This document shows, piece after piece, positions 3,438 through 58,519 of a stretch of 64,000 bases of DNA. Origin of the DNA: Escherichia phage EcS1. The notes under the pieces were generated by a model, which was not told where the DNA came from, did not search any database, and saw only the letters and a program-made list of their open reading frames with translations. A program made the translations under genes and the position numbers. The DNA lies in sequence record NC_055721.1; one strand, 5' to 3'. Position 1 is the stretch's first letter. Each line of letters opens with the position of its first letter.

Positions 3438-4267
3438 ATGTTCGGACACTGGTATAATTCATCACTGCGTCGCTATATTGTTTTAATGGGTGATTTGTTT
3501 TCCCATGTCCAGGTAGCACGTGTCAGAGCGGATGTAGGCACTAAGTTTATTAAAGTTCCTATTACTTATGCTTCAAAAGAAAAATTTATGTCTCAACTTG
3601 GCAAATGGACTGCTATTCAAAGCGCTCAAGATAAAGCCAAGATTGAAACAGTTCTTCCACGTATGAATCTTCATTTAGTGGACTTGCAATATAACGCACA
3701 ATATAAAACAGCTACCCAAAACAGAACTGCGGCTCAATATCAAGACGGTGACCCAAGAAAATCTGTTTCACAATTCAGTCCTACTCCAGTCAAAATGATT
3801 TTTGAGTTAGGCATTTATACTCGTCACCAAGACGATATGTATCAAATCATAGAACAAATTTTGCCTTATTTCCAACCTCATTTTAATACAACAATAACAG
3901 AACTTTATACAAATGAGATTAAATTCGAGCGTGACATCAGGATTGTATTCCAATCAGCTGCAATGGACGAACAAATAGAAGGTGACCCGATGACAAGACG
4001 TCGTTTGGAATGGTCTATTATGTTCGAAGTGAATGGTTGGCTTTATCCACCAGTTGCATCAATTGAAGGCGAAATCAGAACAGTATATATTGACTTCTTT
4101 GCCAATACTAAAGAGCTTACGCCTGAAGGCATATTCGAATCAGTTGATAGTGAAGTAGTTCCTAGATATGTAGAAGAAGCCGATTGGGACGGAAAATCAG
4201 AACAAACTTATTCGCATGATATTCCTATTCCTGTTGAGCCTGCGCCACCTAGCCCGAGGACTAATAA

Positions 4268-13095: not shown

Positions 13096-14655
13096 ATGAA
13101 AAAGAACGCTCTCTTAGAAAAATGGCAGCCACTGCTGGAAAATGAAGAACTGCCAGAAATTGTTGGTGCTTCAAAACAAGCCATTATCGCTAAAATCCTG
13201 GAAAACCAGGAAAAAGACTTTACTACTTCCCCTGAATACAAAGATGAAAAAATCGCAGAAGCTTTTGGTTCGTTCCTGAGTGAAGCAGAAATTGGTGGTG
13301 ACCATGGTTATGATGCAACCAATATCGCTGCTGGTCAAACCTCTGGTGCTGTAACTCATATCGGTCCTGCTGTAATGGGTATGGTTCGTCGTTCAATCCC
13401 TAATCTGATTGCTTTCGATATCTGTGGTGTTCAGCCGATGAATAACCCTACTGGCCAGGTGTTCGCACTGCGTGCTGTGTATGGCAAAGATCCAATCGCA
13501 GCTGGCGCTAAAGAAGCATTCCACCCAATGTTCGCTCCAGATGCAATGTTCTCTGGTCAAGGTGCTGCTGAAGTATTCCCTAAAGCAACCGCTGGTAAAG
13601 TGTTAGCTGTTGGTGATATTGTAGTTCATGATTTCGAACAAACTGGTCGTGCTCATCTTCAAACTGTAGTTGCTTTCACTATTGATGCTGCTGCTACTGA
13701 TGCTGGTAAACTGGACGTAGAAATCACTAAGCAATTAGAAGCTGGTAAACTGGCTGAAATCGCTGAAGGTATGGCTACCTCTATCGCCGAATTGCAAGAA
13801 GGCTTTAACGGTTCTACTGATAATGCTTGGAACGAAATGGGCTTCCGTATCGATAAACAAGTTATCGAAGCTAAATCTCGTCAGCTTAAAGCTGCTTACT
13901 CTATCGAACTGGCTCAAGACTTACGTGCTGTTCACGGTATGGACGCTGATGCCGAACTGAGTGGTATTCTGGCTACAGAAATTATGCTGGAAATTAACCG
14001 TGAAGTAATCGACTGGATTAACTATTCAGCACAGGTTGGTAAAACCGGTATGACTCAAACTGTTGGTTCTAAAGCCGGTGTGTTTGACTTCCAAGACCCA
14101 ATCGATACGCGTGGTGCTCGTTGGGCTGGTGAAAGCTTTAAAGCTCTTCTGTTCCAAATCGATAAAGAATCAGCTGAAATCGCACGTCAAACCGGTCGTG
14201 GTGCAGGTAACTTCCTGATTGCTTCACGTAACGTTGTTAACGTACTGGCTGCTGTTGATACCAACGTATCTGTAGCTGCTCAAGGTCTGGGTCGTGGTTT
14301 CGAAACTGATACCACTAAAGCCGTATTTGCTGGTGTATTGGGTGGACGCTACCGTGTCTATATCGACCAGTATGCACGTCAAGACTACTTCACCATGGGT
14401 TATAAAGGTTCTAACGAAATGGATGCTGGTATCTACTACGCGCCATACGTTGCACTGACTCCGCTGCGTGGTTCCGATCCTAAGAACTTCCAACCAGTAA
14501 TGGGCTTCAAAACTCGTTATGGTATCGGTATTAACCCATTCGCTGACCCAGAAGCTCAGGCTCCTAAAGGTCGTGTCGTGTCTGGTATGCCTTCATTGGC
14601 TAACAGCATCGGTAAAAACGGTTACTTCCGTCGTGTGTTCGTTAAAGGTATCTAA
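13096..14655 (+). CDS. 23: Major capsid protein gp23
   Basis: 519 aa; long stretches identical to recalled T4 gp23 (e.g. IGGDHGY, NIAAGQTSGAVT, GPAVMGMVRR, YYAPYVALTPLRGSDPKNFQPVMGFKTRYGIGINPFA). Confidence 0.98.
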   Translation: MKKNALLEKWQPLLENEELPEIVGASKQAIIAKILENQEKDFTTSPEYKDEKIAEAFGSFLSEAEIGGDHGYDATNIAAGQTSGAVTHIGPAVMGMVRRSIPNLIAFDICGVQPMNNPTGQVFALRAVYGKDPIAAGAKEAFHPMFAPDAMFSGQGAAEVFPKATAGKVLAVGDIVVHDFEQTGRAHLQTVVAFTIDAAATDAGKLDVEITKQLEAGKLAEIAEGMATSIAELQEGFNGSTDNAWNEMGFRIDKQVIEAKSRQLKAAYSIELAQDLRAVHGMDADAELSGILATEIMLEINREVIDWINYSAQVGKTGMTQTVGSKAGVFDFQDPIDTRGARWAGESFKALLFQIDKESAEIARQTGRGAGNFLIASRNVVNVLAAVDTNVSVAAQGLGRGFETDTTKAVFAGVLGGRYRVYIDQYARQDYFTMGYKGSNEMDAGIYYAPYVALTPLRGSDPKNFQPVMGFKTRYGIGINPFADPEAQAPKGRVVSGMPSLANSIGKNGYFRRVFVKGI

Positions 14656-14708: not shown

Positions 14709-14728
14709 TATAAATAAACTTATAAATA
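14709..14728 (+). promoter_or_regulatory. Tandem late promoters (two TATAAATA boxes) upstream of gene 24
   Basis: Boxes at 14709-14716 and 14721-14728. Confidence 0.6.
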
Positions 14729-14740
14729 AACTTATAAACA
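14709..14740 (+). repeat. Tandem 12-bp direct repeat (TATAAATAAACT x2.7) carrying two perfect TATAAATA boxes
   Basis: tataaataaact tataaataaact tataaaca read directly. Confidence 0.85.
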
Positions 14741-14755
14741 AAAGAGGAATGTGCA

Positions 14756-16036
14756 ATGAGCAAAATTCATACCCTGTTGCGCGAATCTACAACTACGAGC
14801 AGTTCGTCTCTTGGGCGTCCCGACCTCGTTGCATTGACTCGCGCCACGACTAAATTAATCTATAGCGATATTGTGGCAGAACAACGTACATCTCAACCAG
14901 TTGCGGCATTATATGGTATCAAATATTTGAACCCTAATGATGATATGACCTTTACTTCTGGTGCTACTTATGCTGGCCCATTCGGTACTAAAGAACGCAA
15001 AACGGTAGTTGAAATTACTGATGCAAATAAAGCAACATTTACAACAGGCAAATACTTCAAATATAAAGATATCGTTTATAAAGTATTAGGTGTTTCTGTT
15101 ACCGATGGGACTACTGAAACCGATCTTGATTTTATGATTCAAGAATCAATGGTTCTTTTGAATATTCGAAGTGTGCACGAAGCAGCTGAAACGGCTAAAT
15201 TTGAAGCCTCTGATGTAGAAGTATCTGAAGCATCATTTGAAGTGTCTAAATGGAATGCTCCAGTTAAATCACGTAAATTAAAAACAGCTTTGACTGTTGA
15301 ATTGATGCAAGACCTTGAAGCTAATGGATTCAATTCGCCTAATTTCGTAGAAGATCTTTTGGCTACCGAAATGGCTGATGAAATTAATAAAGACATTATC
15401 CAGTCATTGATTACAGTTTCTAGTCGTTATAAAGTTACTGGTGAAACAGATAAAGGCATTCTTGATTTAACTACTGTTGAAGACCCGTTAGCTGGACGTA
15501 AATTGTATCGTATGGTATGTGAAATCAATTCGCATATTCAAAGAACAACTTCTTATTCAGGAACTTATGTCGTTGCATCAACTCGTGTCGCTGCTGTATT
15601 AGCTTCTTCAGGTTGGTTAAAACATAAGCCAGAAGATGACCAATATCTGTCACCGGCTGCATATGGATTCTTGGCTAATGGTCTGCCACTTTATTGTGAT
15701 GCAAGTTCACCATTAGATTATGTTATTGTTGGTGTTAAAGAGGACTTTGGTGAACTAGAAATGGTTGGCTCATTGTTCTATGCGCCGTATACTGAAGGAT
15801 TGGATTTAGAAGACCCTGAACACGTAGGTGCGTTTAAGGTAATTGTTGACCCGGAATCTTTGCAACCATCTGTTGCATTACTGGTTAGATATGCTCTGTC
15901 AGCGAACCCTTATACAGTAGCTAAAAACGAGGCTGATGCTCGTATTATTGATGCTACTGATATGGATAAAATGGCAGGTCAAAGTGATATGTCTGTATTG
16001 CTTGGTGTTAAGTTACCGAAGTTAATTGCAGGCTAA
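14756..16036 (+). CDS. 24: Capsid vertex protein gp24
   Basis: 426 aa, gp23 paralog position and size. Confidence 0.9.
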   Translation: MSKIHTLLRESTTTSSSSLGRPDLVALTRATTKLIYSDIVAEQRTSQPVAALYGIKYLNPNDDMTFTSGATYAGPFGTKERKTVVEITDANKATFTTGKYFKYKDIVYKVLGVSVTDGTTETDLDFMIQESMVLLNIRSVHEAAETAKFEASDVEVSEASFEVSKWNAPVKSRKLKTALTVELMQDLEANGFNSPNFVEDLLATEMADEINKDIIQSLITVSSRYKVTGETDKGILDLTTVEDPLAGRKLYRMVCEINSHIQRTTSYSGTYVVASTRVAAVLASSGWLKHKPEDDQYLSPAAYGFLANGLPLYCDASSPLDYVIVGVKEDFGELEMVGSLFYAPYTEGLDLEDPEHVGAFKVIVDPESLQPSVALLVRYALSANPYTVAKNEADARIIDATDMDKMAGQSDMSVLLGVKLPKLIAG

Positions 16037-16070
16037 AAAAAAAAGGGAACCATATGGTTCCCTTTTTTTG
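16035..16070. terminator. Bidirectional terminator between convergent 24 and rnlB (A10-GGGAACCATATGGTTCCC-T7)
   Basis: Palindromic hairpin flanked by A-run and T-run. Confidence 0.8.
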
Positions 16071-16073
16071 TTT

Positions 16074-17078
16074 TTATACTACTTCATGCCATTTTTCACG
16101 AATGGTAGCCATTACTATTTGCTGAAGTTCTTTCTTAACTAAGTTCGGTTGGTCAGCATCGATAAGTACGATACCTTCACGTTCTGCTTCGACAAAAATA
16201 TCTTGCATAGTAAGACCCATTACCTTACCGAAGTCTTTAGCTGTCACTTCACCAATATGACTCAAAACGTTGGACACACGGTTCCAGGTACTATATTCAG
16301 CTAATGTAGACAGTGCAACCTTATCTTGGTCGCTTAATACCGCAGCCGGCTTAATAGGCTTATCAGATTTAGCCTTTTCACTGAACTTAGAGTTCTTACA
16401 TTTAATAGCAACACGATTACCGTTAGCTAAAATCACTGGATAACAAGGCTTCAGAACATAGCCTTCTGCGATATTCTTTTCACCATGAGGCAAGAAACCA
16501 AAGTGAGCTATGTTAGCATATTCAATACCGTTGGCCACAGCAAGTTCATTATAATGATTAACTACAGAATCAAAGTCATTAACTAACTGAGATAATTCTT
16601 CGAAAGAGCCACGAGCTATTAGTGGTGCTACTTTAAAACCAAAGGTACAGCACATACGTTCAACCATGAAATCATCAGCATAAGTGCCTTCTTGGTCGTG
16701 TTCTGACTTAATTAAGATATCGAATACGTAGAAGTCTTTCTCACCGTAATCCATACCTTTTTGAATTCCACCACCTGCGAACTCGCCGAAAATTTGATAC
16801 GAAGATGCTGTACCACAGATAGAGTCTTGAAGAAACTTAATAGACTTATCATATTTCTTCATAATAATTTCATGAGCAAAGAAACTTTCACCGGGCAGAA
16901 TAGGTCCTGTCCGCTTACACGGAGTGACTGCGTCACGACTAATAATTAGAGAGAAGTTTGTACCATGAATCTTTTCACGTGCTACCCATACGCCAGTGTC
17001 ATTACCAGAGAAACGAATCTTCTCGATGAACTTACCGTTGTAATGATTCTCTAAAGAGGAGTACTTTTCAAATGTCAT
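16074..17078 (-). CDS. rnlB: RNA ligase 2
   Basis: 334 aa; [37 protein letters not shown] match recalled T4 Rnl2. Confidence 0.92.
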
Positions 17079-17119
17079 AAATCACCATATTAAAATAATT
17101 AATCTTCTAGCCCCAGGCT

Positions 17120-17127
17120 TATAAATA
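17120..17127 (+). promoter_or_regulatory. Orphan TATAAATA box in loop of AGGC/GCCT hairpin, no adjacent + strand gene
   Basis: Perfect box; nearest + gene (hoc) is 660 nt downstream. Confidence 0.3.
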
Positions 17128-17176
17128 GGCCTCTGAACCATTATATCGAATATATCACATATATTCTTAAAGCATA

Positions 17177-17485
17177 TTAGAACTTAATTTCAACCCATTC
17201 GCCATCACGTTGACAACTACGCCATTTGGCTTCAATACCTTCATCTTCGAGCCATTTAAGGAAAACGTCTTTATATTTCGAGAATTTTGAAACATTCTTC
17301 AAAGGATAATAATGGAATTCTCTGCGTCCTTGTTTAGCAACATCAGTGATACACTTTTCAAAGTCTTTTTTAAGTTCAGTGTATTCTGAACTTGAAATAG
17401 AATCGGCAATAGCACCATAGTAAGTAGCTAATTTAGTAGTACGTGTCATTTTAGGCCTCGGTTTTGGATAAGGTAGCGTGTGCAT
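17177..17485 (-). CDS. Hypothetical protein (24.2-like position); true start may be internal (MTRTTKL)
   Basis: ORF only; synteny. Confidence 0.45.
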   Translation of the reverse strand: MHTLPYPKPRPKMTRTTKLATYYGAIADSISSSEYTELKKDFEKCITDVAKQGRREFHYYPLKNVSKFSKYKDVFLKWLEDEGIEAKWRSCQRDGEWVEIKF

Positions 17486-17726
17486 TGATATTTTTAACCA
17501 ATTTTTTGTGATGCAAAGTTGATGTAGTCATTCGCTTGCGATAAACAACTTTCTCGCGTGATTTGAATTTGATTTTAAGCTTTTCACCTTCAGCCCAATG
17601 TTTAGCAGCTTCTCGAGCTGAAATACCTAATTTTTCAGCTACATCACCAAATGTCATTTTTAAATCTTCAATCATTGTATAAATTTGAACAGCAATATTC
17701 ATAGTCACCTCATGTTTGTAGGTCAA
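17451..17726 (-). CDS. Hypothetical small protein with possible helix-turn-helix (24.3-like position)
   Basis: ORF; segment FGDVAEKLGISAREAAKHW resembles an HTH. Confidence 0.4.
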   Translation of the reverse strand: MTYKHEVTMNIAVQIYTMIEDLKMTFGDVAEKLGISAREAAKHWAEGEKLKIKFKSREKVVYRKRMTTSTLHHKKLVKNINAHATLSKTEA

Positions 17727-17786
17727 TTATACTCAATATTCTTATAGCATAAATACACTATATTTCATAATAAGAGGACACATCTT

Positions 17787-19124
17787 ATGGCTATTCCTTC
17801 AGTAACGATTACCCCAGTTAATGCCTCACCACAACTTGGTCAGACATTAACTATCAATTCAGTAGTTGAATTCGACCCAACAGATGTTTATACATCGTAT
17901 AAATGGGAACTTTCTGGCGCAGATACAGGCGTTACTACTGCAACATACACTAAAGCCAATATCACAAGTGCTGATGCTGGTTCTTACGTATTAAAAGTTA
18001 TGCATGGTGTTGATGCAGGTTCTGCAACTGAAACCGCTTCAAGTCCTGCCGTTATTACTACTTTACCGGCAACAACTGTTTCTATTGTTTCAACCACTAC
18101 TGACATTTATGTCGGTGATACATTAACTATTACTGCTACCCCAACTGGTGTTCCTTCTGGCGCAACAGTAGGCGCATATGAATGGTCTAAAGGTGGTACT
18201 GTAGTTTCGGGCCAAACTACTTCTACATTGACTAAAACAGTTGCGGCTGGCGATGCCGGTTCTTATACTGCTAAAGTATCTTATACTGTAACAGGCCAAG
18301 CACCAATTAAAACTGCTGCATCTAATGCTATCTCTGTTACTGTTGGACCTGCATTAGCATTTGCTACTAACCTTAATGCAACAGCTTCTGTATCAACAGG
18401 CCAAGCTCTTACCCTAACTGTAGCAGCATCCGGTGGTAAATCTCCATATACATATCAATGGAAGAAAGGAAGTGCTAACATAGGAACTAATTTAAATACA
18501 TTTATAGTTCCTTCTGCGGATTCAACAACTGCAGGAACTTATACTGTTGAAGTGACAGATGCTGCAAGTCATAAAATCACATCAGCTTCTTGTGTTGTTA
18601 CAGTGGTGCCTGCTTTATCTTTGAGCACCGATTTGTCTGCGACTAAATCAGTTGTTTCAGGTAAAACTCTTACTCTAACTATTGTTGCAGCTAATGGCAA
18701 AACGCCTTATACATATCAATGGAAAAGAGCTGGCGTTGAAATCCCAAGTGAAACAGCTGCTACATTTACTAAATCTGCGTCACCAGCGGACGCAGGTACG
18801 TATACATGTGAAGTGACAGATGATAATAACGATAAAATCACATCTAATACATGTGTTGTAACTGTTAGTTTATTGCCTGATTTAGAAGTTCTTTGGACTG
18901 TACATCCTATCCCATGGCGAGATACAAGTTTCACTCCGTTAGGTTATTGGGTATTAGATGAAATCTTACTTCAAAAAGCTGATGGCAAAGACTGGAAAAC
19001 TGATTACGCTACTTATCATTACACAGAAGAAGTTCAAACTATTTTAGAAGCATTTAATGCTATGGGTGAAGTTGAAATTCAAGACTCGCGTAATGGGTAT
19101 ATCCACAAAATGAGTTTAATTTAA
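17787..19124 (+). CDS. hoc: Hoc, highly immunogenic outer capsid protein (four Ig-like domains plus C-terminal capsid-binding domain)
   Basis: 445 aa; repeated Ig-like units with YxWxxxG and AGxYTCEVTD motifs; C-terminal HPIPWRDTSF...GKDWKTD...QDSRNGYIHK matches recalled T4 Hoc C-terminus. Confidence 0.85.
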   Translation: MAIPSVTITPVNASPQLGQTLTINSVVEFDPTDVYTSYKWELSGADTGVTTATYTKANITSADAGSYVLKVMHGVDAGSATETASSPAVITTLPATTVSIVSTTTDIYVGDTLTITATPTGVPSGATVGAYEWSKGGTVVSGQTTSTLTKTVAAGDAGSYTAKVSYTVTGQAPIKTAASNAISVTVGPALAFATNLNATASVSTGQALTLTVAASGGKSPYTYQWKKGSANIGTNLNTFIVPSADSTTAGTYTVEVTDAASHKITSASCVVTVVPALSLSTDLSATKSVVSGKTLTLTIVAANGKTPYTYQWKRAGVEIPSETAATFTKSASPADAGTYTCEVTDDNNDKITSNTCVVTVSLLPDLEVLWTVHPIPWRDTSFTPLGYWVLDEILLQKADGKDWKTDYATYHYTEEVQTILEAFNAMGEVEIQDSRNGYIHKMSLI

Positions 19125-19133
19125 GAAGGTTTT

Positions 19134-19631
19134 ATGGCTGATAAATGGACAACAGTTAACCCAATCCCGTGGCGAGATACAAGTTTTACGTATCTCCCTT
19201 ACTGGCTTTACGATATTATAGTTAAAGCCTTTAAAGACGGTAATGATTGGCGTGATTATTCTGAAACGAAATACAAATTAGAATTTGATACCTTGATTCA
19301 AGCATTCGAAGACTACGATGACATTTCAGTTATTGAATCACGTAATGGTAATCTACATGATTTATCTAATTTTACACCAGTAACAATCACAGCTAAATCA
19401 CCTGTGCCAGCTTTTAAAGTTGGTGACCCAGATTTAGTTATCAGCGCATTGTTCACAATTGATCCAGTTAAATTAGGGCAGCATGCAGTGTTATCTGTTG
19501 ATGCTTCTGGACATGCTGTATTAAGCAGCAGTGCTGTACCATCCGTTAAGGCTGTTTCGGCTGGGACAACTGTGGTGACATGTACTATTGGTGATGTATC
19601 AGAAACAATTAGTTTAGTTGTAACTGTATAG
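19134..19631 (+). CDS. Hoc-anchor-domain protein with C-terminal Big_2-like Ig domain (second putative capsid decoration protein)
   Basis: N-terminal 75 aa (NPIPWRDTSFTYLPYW...DGNDWRDY...ESRNGNLH) paralogous to the Hoc C-terminal domain of the preceding ORF; C-terminal VDASGHAVLSSS..VKAVSAGTTVVTCTIGDVSETISLVVTV has Big_2 pattern. Confidence 0.75.
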   Translation: MADKWTTVNPIPWRDTSFTYLPYWLYDIIVKAFKDGNDWRDYSETKYKLEFDTLIQAFEDYDDISVIESRNGNLHDLSNFTPVTITAKSPVPAFKVGDPDLVISALFTIDPVKLGQHAVLSVDASGHAVLSSSAVPSVKAVSAGTTVVTCTIGDVSETISLVVTV

Positions 19632-19632
19632 C

Positions 19633-19666
19633 AAAAAGGGAGAGCTTACGCTCTCCCTTTTTTATT
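19633..19666. terminator. Bidirectional terminator between convergent 19134..19631 and 19662..20375
   Basis: AAAAA-GGGAGAGC-TTAC-GCTCTCCC-TTTTTT. Confidence 0.8.
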
Positions 19667-20375
19667 TTATAACTTGGAAACTTGAATTACGCGTTTCACG
19701 AACGCGAACTAACCCATCACGCTTAATGTAATATAAAAGACTTAATATCGTATCAATACCGTAGTGGTGTGGGAACGAATGCGGATTCACTTTCCATTCT
19801 GGGTTCTTTGTAATCCATTCATAAATCCACCAAGGTAGAGTTACATAAGTTAATCCACGTCCAATTTGAGCTAATGTAGGACTGAAATCTTTTGGAAGCT
19901 CAAATACCTTTTCAGATTCAATAATCTGTTCAATAGCTTTTTCAAGAGCAGGGAGATCTTCTTCAGTCATAGGCTTGGTTGGGATAGTTTCAATGCCTTC
20001 GCTATGAATAACTGTAACAACTTCACCAATTGGAGCTTGAATAGAGTTAATGATTTTAGCTTCAACGGAAGGAGCTCCGATAGAATCGATCAAAAGTGTC
20101 TTGGCTTCATCTTTAGCTTCATCTTTAAAAACAGAAGTGCCAGTGAGTTCATCATCAGCTTGAATCAAATCAGAGATACTCATTCCGCCAATATCTTCAG
20201 GCATTGGTTCAGAAGCAAGTTTTTTCATTTCTTCTGACAAGTCAGCAACCATGTTATCAAATGACTTAGTTTTCTTTAAAGTTATGTTGAAAGTAAGAGC
20301 GTAGTCGGCCAGTTTTTCTTTGGCTTCTTTTTTGTCTAGCTCACGAAGTTCGTCAATATAAATTTTATCAATCAT
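19662..20375 (-). CDS. Hypothetical acidic protein in the position occupied by inh in T4 (identity not confirmed)
   Basis: 237 aa ORF; synteny between hoc and uvsW; sequence not recognised. Confidence 0.5.
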   Translation of the reverse strand: MIDKIYIDELRELDKKEAKEKLADYALTFNITLKKTKSFDNMVADLSEEMKKLASEPMPEDIGGMSISDLIQADDELTGTSVFKDEAKDEAKTLLIDSIGAPSVEAKIINSIQAPIGEVVTVIHSEGIETIPTKPMTEEDLPALEKAIEQIIESEKVFELPKDFSPTLAQIGRGLTYVTLPWWIYEWITKNPEWKVNPHSFPHHYGIDTILSLLYYIKRDGLVRVRETRNSSFQVIK

Positions 20376-20390
20376 AGTATAGCCTCAGTG

Positions 20391-20398
20391 TATAAATA
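20391..20398 (+). promoter_or_regulatory. Late promoter TATAAATA upstream of uvsW
   Basis: Perfect box 30 nt before GTG start. Confidence 0.5.
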
Positions 20399-20427
20399 TA
20401 TCTATATTTATTACTTAGGAATCTCTC

Positions 20428-21927
20428 GTGGATATCAATGTACATTTTGAAGATTATAGTCATGTTCTGATTGAATGCTCAGAGAGCATCTTCTTTGAAC
20501 TAAGAGACTACTTTTCATTTGAAGCTGATGGCTTCAAATTTAACCCACAATACAAATATGGTCATTGGGATGGACGAATTCGCCTTTTAGGTTATGACCG
20601 TCGTTTGCCATTTGGACTAGTTGGATTCATCGATAAATTTGCTTCCAATATGGATTACAAAGTAGCAATTGACCCTAAAATCAATGAGAAAGAAGATATC
20701 GCTCGTGTTGATTTTGATAATTGGTTGAATGCTCTTGAAATTTATTCTGGGTCTACCAAGATTGAGCCACATTGGTACCAGAAGGACGCCGTGTACACTG
20801 GCCTGATGAATCGTAGAAACATTCTTAATTTACCTACTTCCGCAGGTAAGTCATTGATTCAGGCGCTCCTGGCACGTTATTATGTTGAGAACTATGTTGG
20901 TAAGATTTTAATCATTGTTCCAACAACAGCTTTAGTTGATCAAATGATTGACGATTTTGTTGATTATCGTTTGTTCAATCGTAAGAATATGCTAGGCATT
21001 CGTGGTGGTACAGCTCGTGATTCTGACGCAGAGATTTATGTTGCTACTTGGCAAACTGCTGTTAAACAACCTAAAGAATGGTTCAGTCAGTTTGGTATGA
21101 TGATGAACGACGAATGTCATCTTGCTACAGGCAAAAGTATTTCATCTATTATTGCAGGCTTAAATAATTGTGCTTTCAAATATGGTCTTTCTGGTTCTTT
21201 AAAAGATGGTAAAGCCAATTTGATGCAATATGTAGGTATGTTTGGTAATGTTTTTAAGCCTGTGTCAACATCACAGCTTATGGAAGATGGTCAAGTAACT
21301 GATTTGAAAATCAACTCTATTTTCTTACGTTACCCTGATGAATTCTGTGCTCAAATGAAAGGCAAAGATTATCAGACAGAAATTAAGGTTATCCAAAAAG
21401 CTAAGAAACGAAATCTTTGGGTCTCTAAGCTTGCTGTTAAATTAGCTAAAAAAGAAGAGAACGTTTTCTTGATGTTCAAGAATGCCGAACATGGTAAAGA
21501 ACTTTTCCAAATGGTTAAAGACCTTGAGCATAAAGAAGTATTCTTCGTAAATGGTGAAGTTGATACTGATACTCGTAATGCATTGAAAGTAATGGCTGAA
21601 AATGGCAAGGGTATTATTGTTGTCGCTTCATACGGCGTATTCTCTACCGGCATCAGTGTTAAAAACTTACATCATATTATTTTTGCACACCCGGTAAAAT
21701 CAAAGATCATTGTGCTTCAGACTATTGGTCGTGTACTTCGTAAACACGTAAGTAAAACAACGGCTCAAGTCTGGGACATTATAGATGATATGGGTGTTAA
21801 ACCTAAGTCTGCTAATGCTAAAAAGAAATATGTTCATTTGAATTATGCATTAAAACATGCTCTTGAACGTATTCAACGTTATGCAGAAGAAAAATTCAAT
21901 TATGTAATGAAACAGGTAGACTTATGA
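20428..21927 (+). CDS. uvsW: UvsW recombination/repair helicase (GTG start)
   Basis: 499 aa; ILNLPTSAGKS Walker A, MMNDECHLA DExH box, GRVLRKH; near-identical to recalled T4 UvsW. Confidence 0.95.
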   Translation: MDINVHFEDYSHVLIECSESIFFELRDYFSFEADGFKFNPQYKYGHWDGRIRLLGYDRRLPFGLVGFIDKFASNMDYKVAIDPKINEKEDIARVDFDNWLNALEIYSGSTKIEPHWYQKDAVYTGLMNRRNILNLPTSAGKSLIQALLARYYVENYVGKILIIVPTTALVDQMIDDFVDYRLFNRKNMLGIRGGTARDSDAEIYVATWQTAVKQPKEWFSQFGMMMNDECHLATGKSISSIIAGLNNCAFKYGLSGSLKDGKANLMQYVGMFGNVFKPVSTSQLMEDGQVTDLKINSIFLRYPDEFCAQMKGKDYQTEIKVIQKAKKRNLWVSKLAVKLAKKEENVFLMFKNAEHGKELFQMVKDLEHKEVFFVNGEVDTDTRNALKVMAENGKGIIVVASYGVFSTGISVKNLHHIIFAHPVKSKIIVLQTIGRVLRKHVSKTTAQVWDIIDDMGVKPKSANAKKKYVHLNYALKHALERIQRYAEEKFNYVMKQVDL

Positions 21928-24144: not shown

Positions 24145-24170
24145 AAAATAGTTCCTCTTATATGTGTATT

Positions 24171-24178
24171 TATAAATA
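24171..24178 (+). promoter_or_regulatory. Late promoter TATAAATA upstream of gene 51
   Basis: Perfect box 17 nt before ATG. Confidence 0.6.
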
Positions 24179-32850: not shown

Positions 32851-32897
32851 AGTGTTACCTTTAGCAGTTTATTATATTCTAGTATTTATGCCCAAAA

Positions 32898-39338: not shown

Positions 39339-39692
39339 TTATTTATACACTACGCCTAACGACTTATAATGCGCAGCTACAAATTTTTGTTTTACTTCTT
39401 TAGGTTGTTTAATACCTAAAGCAACAAGTGGATGAATCACGTTTTTAAACGTTGGGTTACTTGCAAGATAAGGAACCAAATCACCTACTTCAATGAAACC
39501 AGTTGGAACTTCATCGCCAATGGAATGAACTTCCATTACTTCTGGTAATTGACCTTGTGTTTCTTTGCCTAAAAAGATTCCAGATTCAGATGTTTTATCA
39601 TCACCTGCTTGGGACGGTTCAGAGACAAAAATAATGTGCTCACCTAGAGCTTTAATTGGGAGTTCCATTTTATTACCTGTTTGGTAGACCAT
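39339..39692 (-). CDS. 31: Co-chaperonin gp31 (GroES analogue)
   Basis: LPIKALGEHIIFVSEPSQAGDD..HSIGDEVPTGF.EVGDL..HPLVALGIKQPKEVKQKF..HYK matches recalled T4 gp31. Confidence 0.9.
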   Translation of the reverse strand: MVYQTGNKMELPIKALGEHIIFVSEPSQAGDDKTSESGIFLGKETQGQLPEVMEVHSIGDEVPTGFIEVGDLVPYLASNPTFKNVIHPLVALGIKQPKEVKQKFVAAHYKSLGVVYK

Positions 39693-57210: not shown

Positions 57211-57295
57211 ATTTTATTACCTTATTTAAATTAACAGTTTATTTTATTAGTTGATGTGACATAATGCCTCACATCTGGCATACTGATATTTATAA
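57211..57295 (-). promoter_or_regulatory. Gene 32 leader with hairpin (ATGTGA-N9-TCACAT) and minus-strand TATAAATA; candidate translational operator
   Basis: Hairpin and A/U-rich leader read upstream of gene 32 ATG; T4 gp32 autoregulates on its leader (from memory). Confidence 0.4.
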
Positions 57296-57949
57296 TCAGA
57301 TTTTGCAACTCTTGATAGTTTGTATAAAGAGCGTTTTAGCTTCCAAGGGATTAATATTCAAAATCTTCTTGTAAGCTTTCAATTTAATCGAATAATTCGA
57401 CCAAACTAAATCAGTAGACAGTTCGTCATGTTTATCTATTATATCCAAAAAAGAATCAAGCAAAATAAACGTTTCAAAACTGATAACGTTTGATTGGAGA
57501 AGCTTGAAGATATAACTCGAGCTGACGTTCTTATTATACACAAATAATTCGTTAAGCGAATTGGTTTCAACTTTCTGAGCGAAGTAATACATGTTCTTAA
57601 TATCATCTTCGAACACGGTTTTAACTCGTTTCAGTTTACCAATATATTCACGATAAAATACTAACGCGTCAGCATCACTGATGTCGCCAATCCATGCATC
57701 TTGGTTAGCAACCAAGTTACTCATGAATATTAATGTTAGTTCTTTAAGAGTGTATTTGTCAGCTAGTTTTTCAAAGAAATACTTGTCACGACGTTTGTTA
57801 TAGGCTGCGTCAGAAATTCGCATGGTCCAATTATACTTTATAACGTCGTAACGACCATTAAAGTGCTGTTTGAGCATCAAATACAACATATAAACTGATT
57901 TACCATTTATATGTCGTGTATTATTAGGAGGCATGCGAATTTGAATCAT
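57296..57949 (-). CDS. 59: Helicase loader gp59
   Basis: 217 aa (same as T4); YDVIKYNW.MR.SDAAY.KRRDKYFF, VANQDAWIGDISDADALVFYREYIG, SSYIFKLLQSN.ISFETFILLDSFL.IIDKHDE. Confidence 0.95.
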   Translation of the reverse strand: MIQIRMPPNNTRHINGKSVYMLYLMLKQHFNGRYDVIKYNWTMRISDAAYNKRRDKYFFEKLADKYTLKELTLIFMSNLVANQDAWIGDISDADALVFYREYIGKLKRVKTVFEDDIKNMYYFAQKVETNSLNELFVYNKNVSSSYIFKLLQSNVISFETFILLDSFLDIIDKHDELSTDLVWSNYSIKLKAYKKILNINPLEAKTLFIQTIKSCKI

Positions 57950-58254
57950 AGCAAGAAATCCAGGGTATTTGTTCGTTGAGTACGAGCCATAGATGGACGA
58001 AGAAGATTATCGTCAATGGCTTCGCTCATAATTTTATCAATTATACCAGTCGGAATGAATCGAGCAAATTGACCTTCTGGAACAGAGTTTTCTTCAAGCC
58101 AGGCAGTCGTTACTTCAAGATAAGAAGAACCGGTTTTAGCAACCAGTTTTTCAATATCGAAGCCATTTTGTTGTTTATCTAAAGAAGTATTGATATCATC
58201 TTTAGTAATAGGGGCGCCAGCCCCATCATCATTTAGCAGGGAAAATTGAGTCAT
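57946..58254 (-). CDS. 33: Late transcription accessory protein gp33 (start at MTQFSL)
   Basis: C-terminal ENSVPEGQFARFIPTGIIDKIMSEAIDDNLLRPS...TNTLDFLL matches recalled T4 gp33. Confidence 0.85.
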   Translation of the reverse strand: MTQFSLLNDDGAGAPITKDDINTSLDKQQNGFDIEKLVAKTGSSYLEVTTAWLEENSVPEGQFARFIPTGIIDKIMSEAIDDNLLRPSMARTQRTNTLDFLL

Positions 58255-58519
58255 ACAGTTCAACAACCTCTTCTTTCTCAGATTCAAAACGATCACGTGT
58301 ACCTTTGTGATGCAGAGAGAACACTTGGCCAAACATTTTACCGTCTACACCAAGTTCTTTCTTAGCTCGAGTTTTGATTTCTTTAATTTGGTCGCCATAA
58401 GCTTCCATTTTCAATTTAATATCAGAAGCTTCTTTAACCATTTTAGCCAAGTCAGCACCATGGACAGCTTCGTCAAATTCAACTTTAAATTCTTTCTTTT
58501 CTTTAACTTCTTTAGACAT
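58229..58519 (-). CDS. dsbA: Double-stranded DNA-binding protein DsbA
   Basis: 96 aa basic protein between 33 and rnh as in T4. Confidence 0.6.
   Translation of the reverse strand: MSKEVKEKKEFKVEFDEAVHGADLAKMVKEASDIKLKMEAYGDQIKEIKTRAKKELGVDGKMFGQVFSLHHKGTRDRFESEKEEVVELYDSIFPAK

Follow-up and report, generated by a model that had tools for sequence, protein, structure and literature searches.

We favour, on a narrow balance of probability, the reading that the spacer between rnlB and the 24.2-like gene of this T4-like phage forms a two-strand cassette, in which a MotA/AsiA-dependent middle promoter of rnlB would face a conserved, probably weak late promoter of the gp55 type. The backward-facing late box in this spacer is probably a working but weak antisense promoter and not a chance match. 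The sequences, their geometry, and the conservation of the box in one orientation were observed directly, and the assignment of functions is deduced from them by comparison with related phages.

The window, i.e., the whole 64-kb stretch of DNA that was analysed, belongs to a T4-like phage whose nearest annotated relatives are the Winklervirus phages (X20, CHI14, Kc304, Vettismorki, and LC53). Their identity to the window was ~81% over the rnlB locus and 88% in gene 23. RnlB of the window was 100% identical over its full length to a protein of contig IMGVR_UViG_2974737508_000001 (protein similarity). The features of the locus are listed in Table 1. The rnlB/24.2-like spacer is 98 nt long (17079-17176) and contains 71% A+T. 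The assumption that it is better conserved than its coding flanks was rejected, the identity to X20 being 80.8% for the spacer vs. 81.7% for rnlB. In the Serratia phage LC53 (L163, 348-440), the 24.2 gene has been lost and the promoter-hairpin-box cassette before rnlB has been retained; the MotA box of this phage starts at the very edge of the retrieved sequence.

Table 1. Genes and sequence elements of the rnlB locus in the window.
Feature	Position	Strand	Remarks
gene 23	13096-14655	+	
gene 24	14756-16036	+	
two-way terminator hairpins	16038-16069 and 19633-19662		terminator scan
rnlB (RNA ligase 2)	16074-17078	-	phrog_548, E = 1e-119; gene served by the leader
Shine-Dalgarno GGTGA of rnlB	17082-17086	-	outside the hairpin
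interrupted stem-loop of the rnlB leader RNA	17108-17140	-	RNAfold -9.4 kcal/mol; loop holds UAUUUAUA
perfect T4-type late-promoter box TATAAATA	17120-17127	+	positions -13 to -6; predicted late start ~17133 (+)
second -10-like hexamer TATAAT, then GGTT	17140-17145	-	3 bp beyond the first -10
extended -10, TGa + TATATT	17149-17157	-	13 bp from the MotA box; predicted middle start ~17142 (-)
MotA box TATGCTTTA	17168-17176	-	directly after the 24.2 stop; fits the strict consensus
24.2-like gene	17177-17485	-	phrog_3012; named 24.2 in the annotation of X20 and PEi20
24.3-like gene (DUF2774)	17451-17702	-	PF11242, phrog_1566; likely start ATG 17702, read from the sequence
late-promoter variant of hoc, CATAAATA	17748-17755	+	31 nt before ATG 17787; A+T-rich downstream
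Hoc-like head decoration gene	17787-19124	+	phrog_1149, E = 2e-64; first + gene downstream of the box
second Hoc-like gene	19134-19631	+	
inh	19662-20375	-	
uvsW	20428-21927	+	

As originally predicted, a perfect late box in the + orientation lies within the loop of AGGC/GCCT. The box at 17120-17127 is enclosed by AGGC (17115-17118) and GCCT (17129-17132), which leave a loop of 10 nt (TTATAAATAG). It agrees with the T4 late motif, which occupies positions -13 to -6 relative to the start (PMC1524935) and deviates mainly at -13. The claim that no + strand gene follows for 660 nt was also borne out, the next + ORF being the Hoc-like gene 659 nt past the box. Late boxes usually stand 15-45 nt upstream of a gene on the same strand, a spacing that is not defining, and most perfect boxes in the window were found 17-40 nt upstream of a same-strand gene; the 17120 box is a clear orphan. 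Perfect boxes were in excess in the window as a whole, with 16 seen against 5.8 expected and none of 100 shuffles reaching 16. The late system is probably present, as suggested by a gp33 homologue in the window (PF16805, E = 5e-25, 57946-58332); the 64 kb contain no gp55 or gp45 gene, and the nearest genus encodes gp55, gp33, gp45, MotA, and AsiA. One box in a 71% A+T spacer of this kind appeared in ~3-8% of shuffles. Since neither the box nor the hairpin is significant in the window alone, their significance rests on the comparison with relatives.

In the rnlB sense, the spacer reads TAA (24.2 stop)-TATGCTTTA-AGAATATATGTGA-TATATT-CGA-TATAAT-GGTTCAGAGGCC-TATTTATA-AGCCTGGGGCTAGAAG...GGTGATTT-ATG. 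The consensus of T4 middle promoters comprises a MotA box (a/t)(a/t)(a/t)TGCTTtA located 12 +/- 1 bp from a -10 TAnnnT (PMC2988021), and the spacer carries the box, a 13-bp distance, and a TGn before TATATT. We read the segment 17176-17140 (-) as the rnlB middle promoter, with a predicted start at ~17142 or ~17133. The latter position, predicted from TATAAT, is the same base pair as the predicted late start. The rnlB spacer was the single match to TGCTTTA-N(10-24)-TATAAT in the whole window. Among the relatives, the MotA box is kept in all cassette families, the TGa + TATATT element lies inside a 24-nt block identical in Winklervirus, and TATAAT is the sole -10 in those with a shorter promoter. 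The MotA and AsiA genes are absent from the 64-kb window; LC53 (Winklervirus) has both. In T4, the middle promoters PrnlB (start 109763) and P24.3 were mapped experimentally (PMC2988021, Table 1), and PrnlB is located inside the 24.2 coding sequence. No promoter features are annotated in the rnlB/24.2 region of the T4 sequence records.

Inverted repeats that differ in sequence between lineages were noticed in or around the spacer of the rnlB middle promoter: at 17148-17166 in the window, at ~3570-3592 in locus L002, in L162, and at 2633-2668 in L011. The repeats read GAATATAT/ATATATTC in the window, TCGAA/TTCGA in X20, and AACACG/CGTGTT in FBB1, and the one in L011 (AAGAATCCG/CGGATTCTT) encloses the -10. 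They may represent an operator or, alternatively, a structure formed in RNA that reads through from 24.2.

From either of the two predicted starts, the rnlB middle transcript would begin with the stem-loop 17140-17108. Its inner stem pairs 17132-17129 with 17118-17115 (AGGC/GCCT), and its outer G-U-rich stem pairs 17140-17135 with 17113-17108. Folded as - RNA, the window hairpin gave a flank-shuffle p of 0.08; folded as + RNA, it reached -7.4 kcal/mol with z = -0.6. Because the stems differ in register between lineages, each sequence was folded separately and compared with flank shuffles instead of being scored for column covariation. In seven versions (the window, X20, Kc304, PEi20, PM2, Cronus, and FBB1), an invariant TATTTATA is placed between differing G+C-rich arms. 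The 5' and 3' arms are AGGC/GCCT in the window, CCAGCC/GGCTGG in Kc304 (X20 has CCGGCC), UUUGGGU/GGCCCGGG in PEi20, UUUGGGCU/GGCUCAGG in PM2, GGCCG/CGGCU in Cronus, and UCCGGCGC/GCAGCCGGA in FBB1. Several stem pairs are G-U in the rnlB-sense RNA and A-C mismatches in the + RNA, and the rnlB-sense fold was more stable than the + fold in six of eight sequences (the seven versions and Virsaitis27). The flank-shuffle p varied from 0.015 to 0.44 per lineage, with Fisher's combined p of 0.002. The stem-loop is real but modest and belongs mainly to the rnlB leader RNA. Rfam gave no match at 17079-17176 even at E <= 1; the only matches were sub-threshold and fell on the terminators at ~16040 and ~19640.

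To follow the box across T4-like phages, 35 rnlB loci were taken from IMG/VR by protein similarity, a sample blind to the box. Exactly one perfect box was present within 1 kb upstream of rnlB in 18 of these loci, in all 18 cases antisense to rnlB. A perfect box in the sense orientation was found in none of the 35 loci within the same 1 kb, and none occurred in either orientation in 1 kb of rnlB coding sequence. Counted by cassette families (n = 12, including the L011 group), ten had a perfect box, one had AATAAATA, and one was mixed (one member with CATAAATA, two lacking a box). A box would arise by chance with a probability of 2-8% per family, but the families share ancestry, which weakens these statistics. 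The 8-mer was invariant in seven distinct hairpin-class sequences, in which the adjacent stems have been rewritten and the identity of the rnlB protein goes down to ~57%. Variants of the box among relatives differed at -13 only. According to reviews of late promoters, -13 is the variable position, where A often replaces T; in T4, 9 of 50 sites have A, and variation at -13 is also seen in other T4-like phages. From the window, we infer that C at -13 is a late-promoter variant as well.

The position of the box defines three classes. In the first, represented by six lineages (the window phage, Winklervirus, Kanagawavirus, PM2, Cronus, and FBB1), the box occupies the loop of the hairpin, 11-13 nt beyond TATAAT. 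In the second, found in several families, it directly precedes the Shine-Dalgarno sequence (TATTTATA-A/C-T/G-GGTGA), and in the third, known from one family, it is placed at ~-55. Beside the Shine-Dalgarno sequence of the window, ATTATTTTAATATGGTGA resembles a decayed copy of the class-2 box, which suggests that the box was relocated rather than lost. Loci in which 24.2 abuts rnlB, as in T4, have no spacer and mostly no box, and T4 itself has none at rnlB. L011 is an exception: the whole cassette stands before the 24.2-like gene that abuts rnlB, with a MotA box, 13 bp, TATAATGGTTT, and, further on, TATTTATA-CGGTGA-ATG. The box is equally kept in Winklervirus and Kanagawavirus, where hoc and inh are on the other strand and no + gene follows for ~2 kb. 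A scan of viral contigs for TATAATNGTTN{5,11}TATTTATA was dominated by chance matches in A+T-rich genomes; among the matches listed, three had a MotA box, two of them T4-like and both from lineages already in the set. PeSLs are promoter/stem-loop shuffling cassettes of T4-type phages that are repeated at several intergenic sites of one genome. The rnlB cassette is not repeated in this way, as the MotA-box-to-TATAAT arrangement occurs once in the 64-kb window and TATAATGGTT has one other exact copy, inside gene 34. That the box is kept in a single orientation upstream of rnlB in many T4-like lineages speaks for a real promoter.

Several observations indicate that such a promoter would not be strong. 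The 10 nt downstream of the 17120 box (GGCCTCTGAA) contain 6/10 G+C (60%), i.e., they do not form an A+T-rich melting segment. Among the other perfect or -13-variant boxes listed (n = 19), 16 have 1-3/10 G+C downstream and the 57287 box has 5/10; at the overlapping pair 14709 and at 20405, fewer than 10 nt were scored each and G+C is undercounted. A review of late transcription stresses the A+T richness of the segment after the box, which opens on melting. A G+C-rich downstream segment is common to all hairpin-class relatives, and the promoter may therefore have little or no activity; where the box is close to the Shine-Dalgarno sequence, the downstream segment is A+T-rich. The late genes hoc and inh are carried by the - strand in T4, Winklervirus, and Kanagawavirus, so that a strong + promoter in the relatives would produce RNA antisense to needed late genes, which also argues against strong activity. 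A strong hairpin between 24.3 and hoc in the relatives was scored as a terminator on the - strand only. Finally, the box is dispensable, being missing from T4 and other phages with 24.2 abutting rnlB. Taken as a sequence element, the 17120 box is probably functional but weak.

Other late boxes of the window were recorded as well. Between inh and uvsW, two boxes are arranged back to back (20391-20412): TATAAATA (+) at 20391 precedes uvsW by 29 nt, and AATAAATA (-) at 20405-20412 precedes inh by the same distance. T4, X20, PEi20, and several IMG/VR loci show the pair with exactly this offset of 14 nt. Upstream of gene 24, two perfect boxes 12 nt apart lie within a direct repeat (14709-14732, TATAAATAAACT x2). 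Boxes on both strands overlap at 24167-24178 (TATTTATAAATA) between gene 26 (-) and a gene 51-like ORF (+); the + strand box stops 1 nt short of the listed ATG 24180, so that either this start or the function of the box is doubtful. Two perfect boxes are unusually far from the next gene, one at 57287-57294 (-), 76 nt before gene 32, and one at 39340-39347 (-), 114 nt before an 82-aa ORF.

The original prediction also proposed a late antisense RNA that crosses two minus-strand genes before reaching hoc, which was said to lack a perfect box of its own. The geometry of this proposal holds: transcription from the 17120 box would cover 24.2 and 24.3 and then enter hoc, and the consensus scan found no + strand terminator between the box and hoc. 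The dependence of hoc on the box is not supported, as hoc has its own CATAAATA at a distance of 31 nt and the box is kept where hoc is on the other strand. The same variant precedes the neck-protein gene (1673) by 24 nt (1641-1648, +) and alt (32850) by 32 nt (32883-32890, -). In total, three of the four copies of CATAAATA in the window are at the canonical distance from late genes, and the fourth (6078) is inside a gene; CATAAATA, with C at -13, appears to be a late-promoter variant in use in this phage. The copy before hoc overlaps base for base a MotA-like box TATTTATGCTATAAG (TGCTATA, 17749-17743, -), which is followed after 11 bp by TATAAT (17731-17726, -). All these elements fall within 17726-17755, and the minus-strand pair looks like the middle promoter of 24.3. 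The C at -13 of the hoc late box pairs with the G of the MotA core TGCT.

In the window, hoc is inverted compared to T4, Winklervirus, and Kanagawavirus, where hoc and inh are on the rnlB strand, and it is also doubled. Hoc of the window has 445 aa, with Ig-like repeats and a C-terminal capsid-binding-like domain. The following 165-aa ORF begins with a copy of the same C-terminal domain (NPIPWRDTSF...), succeeded by an Ig-like part, and has only 36% identity to the C-terminal part of X20 Hoc. Given the inversion of hoc relative to all annotated relatives examined, transcripts starting at 17133 could extend into hoc in this phage as a by-product. Large ORFs upstream of 24.3 and opposite to rnlB were also seen in other T4-like lineages (L010 343-1962, L026 1219-2520, and L027 693-2273, locus minus strand). 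Neither the L026 nor the L027 ORF is obviously Hoc, and each is preceded at 22 nt by its own AATAAATA; that of L010 has no box nearby. Downstream of the 17120 box, a + strand ORF of 25 codons (~17313) lies antisense inside 24.2, and owing to this overlap its conservation is inseparable from that of 24.2.

The conserved motif could act in RNA instead of DNA. Under this explanation, UAUUUAUA in the rnlB leader would be a site for a protein or for ribosomal protein S1, displayed in a loop or beside the Shine-Dalgarno sequence and serving as a translational operator/enhancer or as a stability element, and the late-box match of its reverse complement would be merely fortuitous. Such a role would agree with the better hairpin on the rnlB-sense strand with its G-U pairs (six of eight lineages), with the combination of varying stems and an invariant loop, typical of protein-bound RNA loops, with the contact between the motif and the Shine-Dalgarno sequence in several families, and with a G+C-rich segment after the box that is poor for a late promoter. 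The RNA context of the motif is inconsistent, however: it is found in a 9-13-nt loop 30 nt from the Shine-Dalgarno sequence, in a single strand abutting it, or at ~-55. The variants are confined to -13, the position that late promoters tolerate, and no other minus-strand gene in the 64 kb has the motif in its leader (+ strand reading). We also know of no UAUUUAUA in the T4 RNA operators for RegA, gp32, and gp43, which counts against an RNA element. Variation at -13 only, together with the changing RNA context, is explained by a DNA-level gp55 box and not by an RNA role of UAUUUAUA, and we consider the RNA-level explanation quite unlikely. An inactive relic or a by-product of base composition, persisting by descent while the flanking G+C stem blocks opening, would account for the G+C-rich downstream segment, for the relatedness of the families, for the absence of the box from T4-type phages, and for its decay in one family (L017, L018); a single box also turns up in 3-8% of shuffles of such spacers. 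It accounts poorly for 18 antisense loci against none in sense and none inside rnlB, for a box that stayed invariant while the adjacent stems were rewritten in seven versions with rnlB identity down to ~57%, and for a change of position with the orientation kept. We regard a relic as unlikely.

The remaining two explanations concern what lies downstream of the box and the stem-loop around it. It is improbable that the 17120 box is the main late promoter of hoc acting through a 650-nt antisense leader. The box is indeed the only perfect + strand box upstream of hoc, with no + terminator predicted in between, and the inverted large ORF of L010 likewise has no box of its own nearby. Against this, CATAAATA before hoc has an A+T-rich segment after it and belongs to a variant used at canonical distance, the orphan box is kept where hoc is on the other strand, and the inverted ORFs of L026 and L027 have their own AATAAATA. 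An intrinsic terminator of 24.3-24.2 or of + strand transcription might be suspected in a G+C-rich inverted repeat located in an intergenic spacer just past a stop codon. No T-run follows the stem on either strand, though, the scan reported no site at 17079-17176, the loop of 9-13 nt is not short, and the stem is downstream, not upstream, of the middle promoter; the terminator reading was rejected as hardly credible.

We therefore return to the facing promoters and compare them with known systems. The 17120 box shares with T4 late promoters (gp55/gp33/gp45) the identical 8-mer, the lack of need for a -35 element, and variation tolerated only at -13. It differs from them by a G+C-rich melting segment, by the lack of a same-strand gene within 40 nt, and by its location in the loop-coding DNA of an opposite-strand leader hairpin. 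The promoters pR and pL of coliphage 186 are an example of interference between convergent (face-to-face) promoters. As in 186, differently timed promoters of the rnlB cassette would face each other over a short overlap, each hindering the other; unlike in 186, the predicted starts are separated by 0-10 bp in the hairpin class and by 70-80 bp in other families, and the switch would come from a change of sigma factor. T4 PrnlB (PMC2988021) serves the same gene and has the same MotA box consensus, 13-bp spacer, and TGn + -10; it lies inside 24.2 without a facing late box, whereas the predicted promoter of the window occupies a dedicated spacer with a second TATAAT 3 bp on. In T4 gene e and I-TevI (PMC3014915), the late box also coincides with DNA encoding a leader stem-loop, but there box and gene share a strand and the ribosome-binding site is masked by the hairpin. 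In the rnlB cassette, an antisense box is combined with a hairpin (17108-17140) that leaves out the Shine-Dalgarno sequence 17082-17086, i.e., the hairpin is not of the sequestering type. The antisense RNA CfrI of the T4-like cyanophage S-PM2 (PMC2984593) covers two adjacent genes, as the predicted late RNA would; CfrI was detected experimentally, is ~225 nt long, originates from another locus, and has no sequence relationship to the rnlB element. Late RNA of either polarity is documented for T4 in the late-transcription review, and T4 late RNA opposite to prereplicative genes, e.g., antisense to gene 32, is mentioned in the passages of PMC3014915 and PMC2988021 that refer to Belin et al. (1987).

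The cassette may be expected to work as follows. On the - strand, the MotA/AsiA-dependent rnlB middle promoter would start at ~17142 and yield an RNA composed of the stem-loop 17140-17108, the Shine-Dalgarno sequence, and rnlB. On the + strand, the late box in the DNA coding the loop would be used by the host RNA polymerase core with gp55, gp33, and the gp45 clamp, with a start at ~17133 directed away from rnlB. With starts 0-10 bp apart, the facing promoters could not be occupied jointly, and polymerases starting from the late box would traverse the middle promoter. In the late phase of infection, the box would thus act as a competitor of the rnlB middle promoter or occlude it, polymerases reading through from 24.3 and 24.2 would run into late transcription, and the late RNA would be antisense to 24.2 and 24.3. 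In the window phage only, where hoc is inverted, this RNA would read on into hoc, in addition to transcription from hoc's own promoter. We infer the firing of either promoter, the start sites, the interference, and the effect of the antisense RNA from the arrangement of the elements. The most plausible conserved role would be a local one, in which the box competes and collides with the rnlB middle promoter and gives rise to RNA antisense to 24.2 and 24.3.

A broader proposal, possible but doubtful, is that the rnlB leader of many Tevenvirinae represents a dual-coded middle-to-late switch, in which ~35 bp encode both the 5' stem-loop of the middle RNA and a convergent gp55 promoter. When the late sigma factor appears, polymerase binding to the box and firing from it would turn the middle promoter off, and antisense RNA covering 24.2 and 24.3 would remain. 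If such a switch were selected for, this would account for the reappearance of the box elsewhere in a remodelled leader with its orientation unchanged. In the literature on late and antisense transcription in T4-like phages, we found no transcript data for any cassette-bearing phage. Boxes without a gene downstream are expressly left out of the promoter table published for the closest genus. LC53, a member of this genus, carries the box; promoter lists that drop boxes without a downstream gene leave conserved elements of this kind unrecorded. The turn-off of middle genes in T4-like phages is usually ascribed to sigma competition and mRNA decay, and to our knowledge programmed antisense transcription is barely documented in this phage family. 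If the box is silent, the result is an ordinary one. If true, a convergent late promoter would provide a concrete promoter-level case of middle shut-off in T4-like phages, together with programmed antisense transcription.
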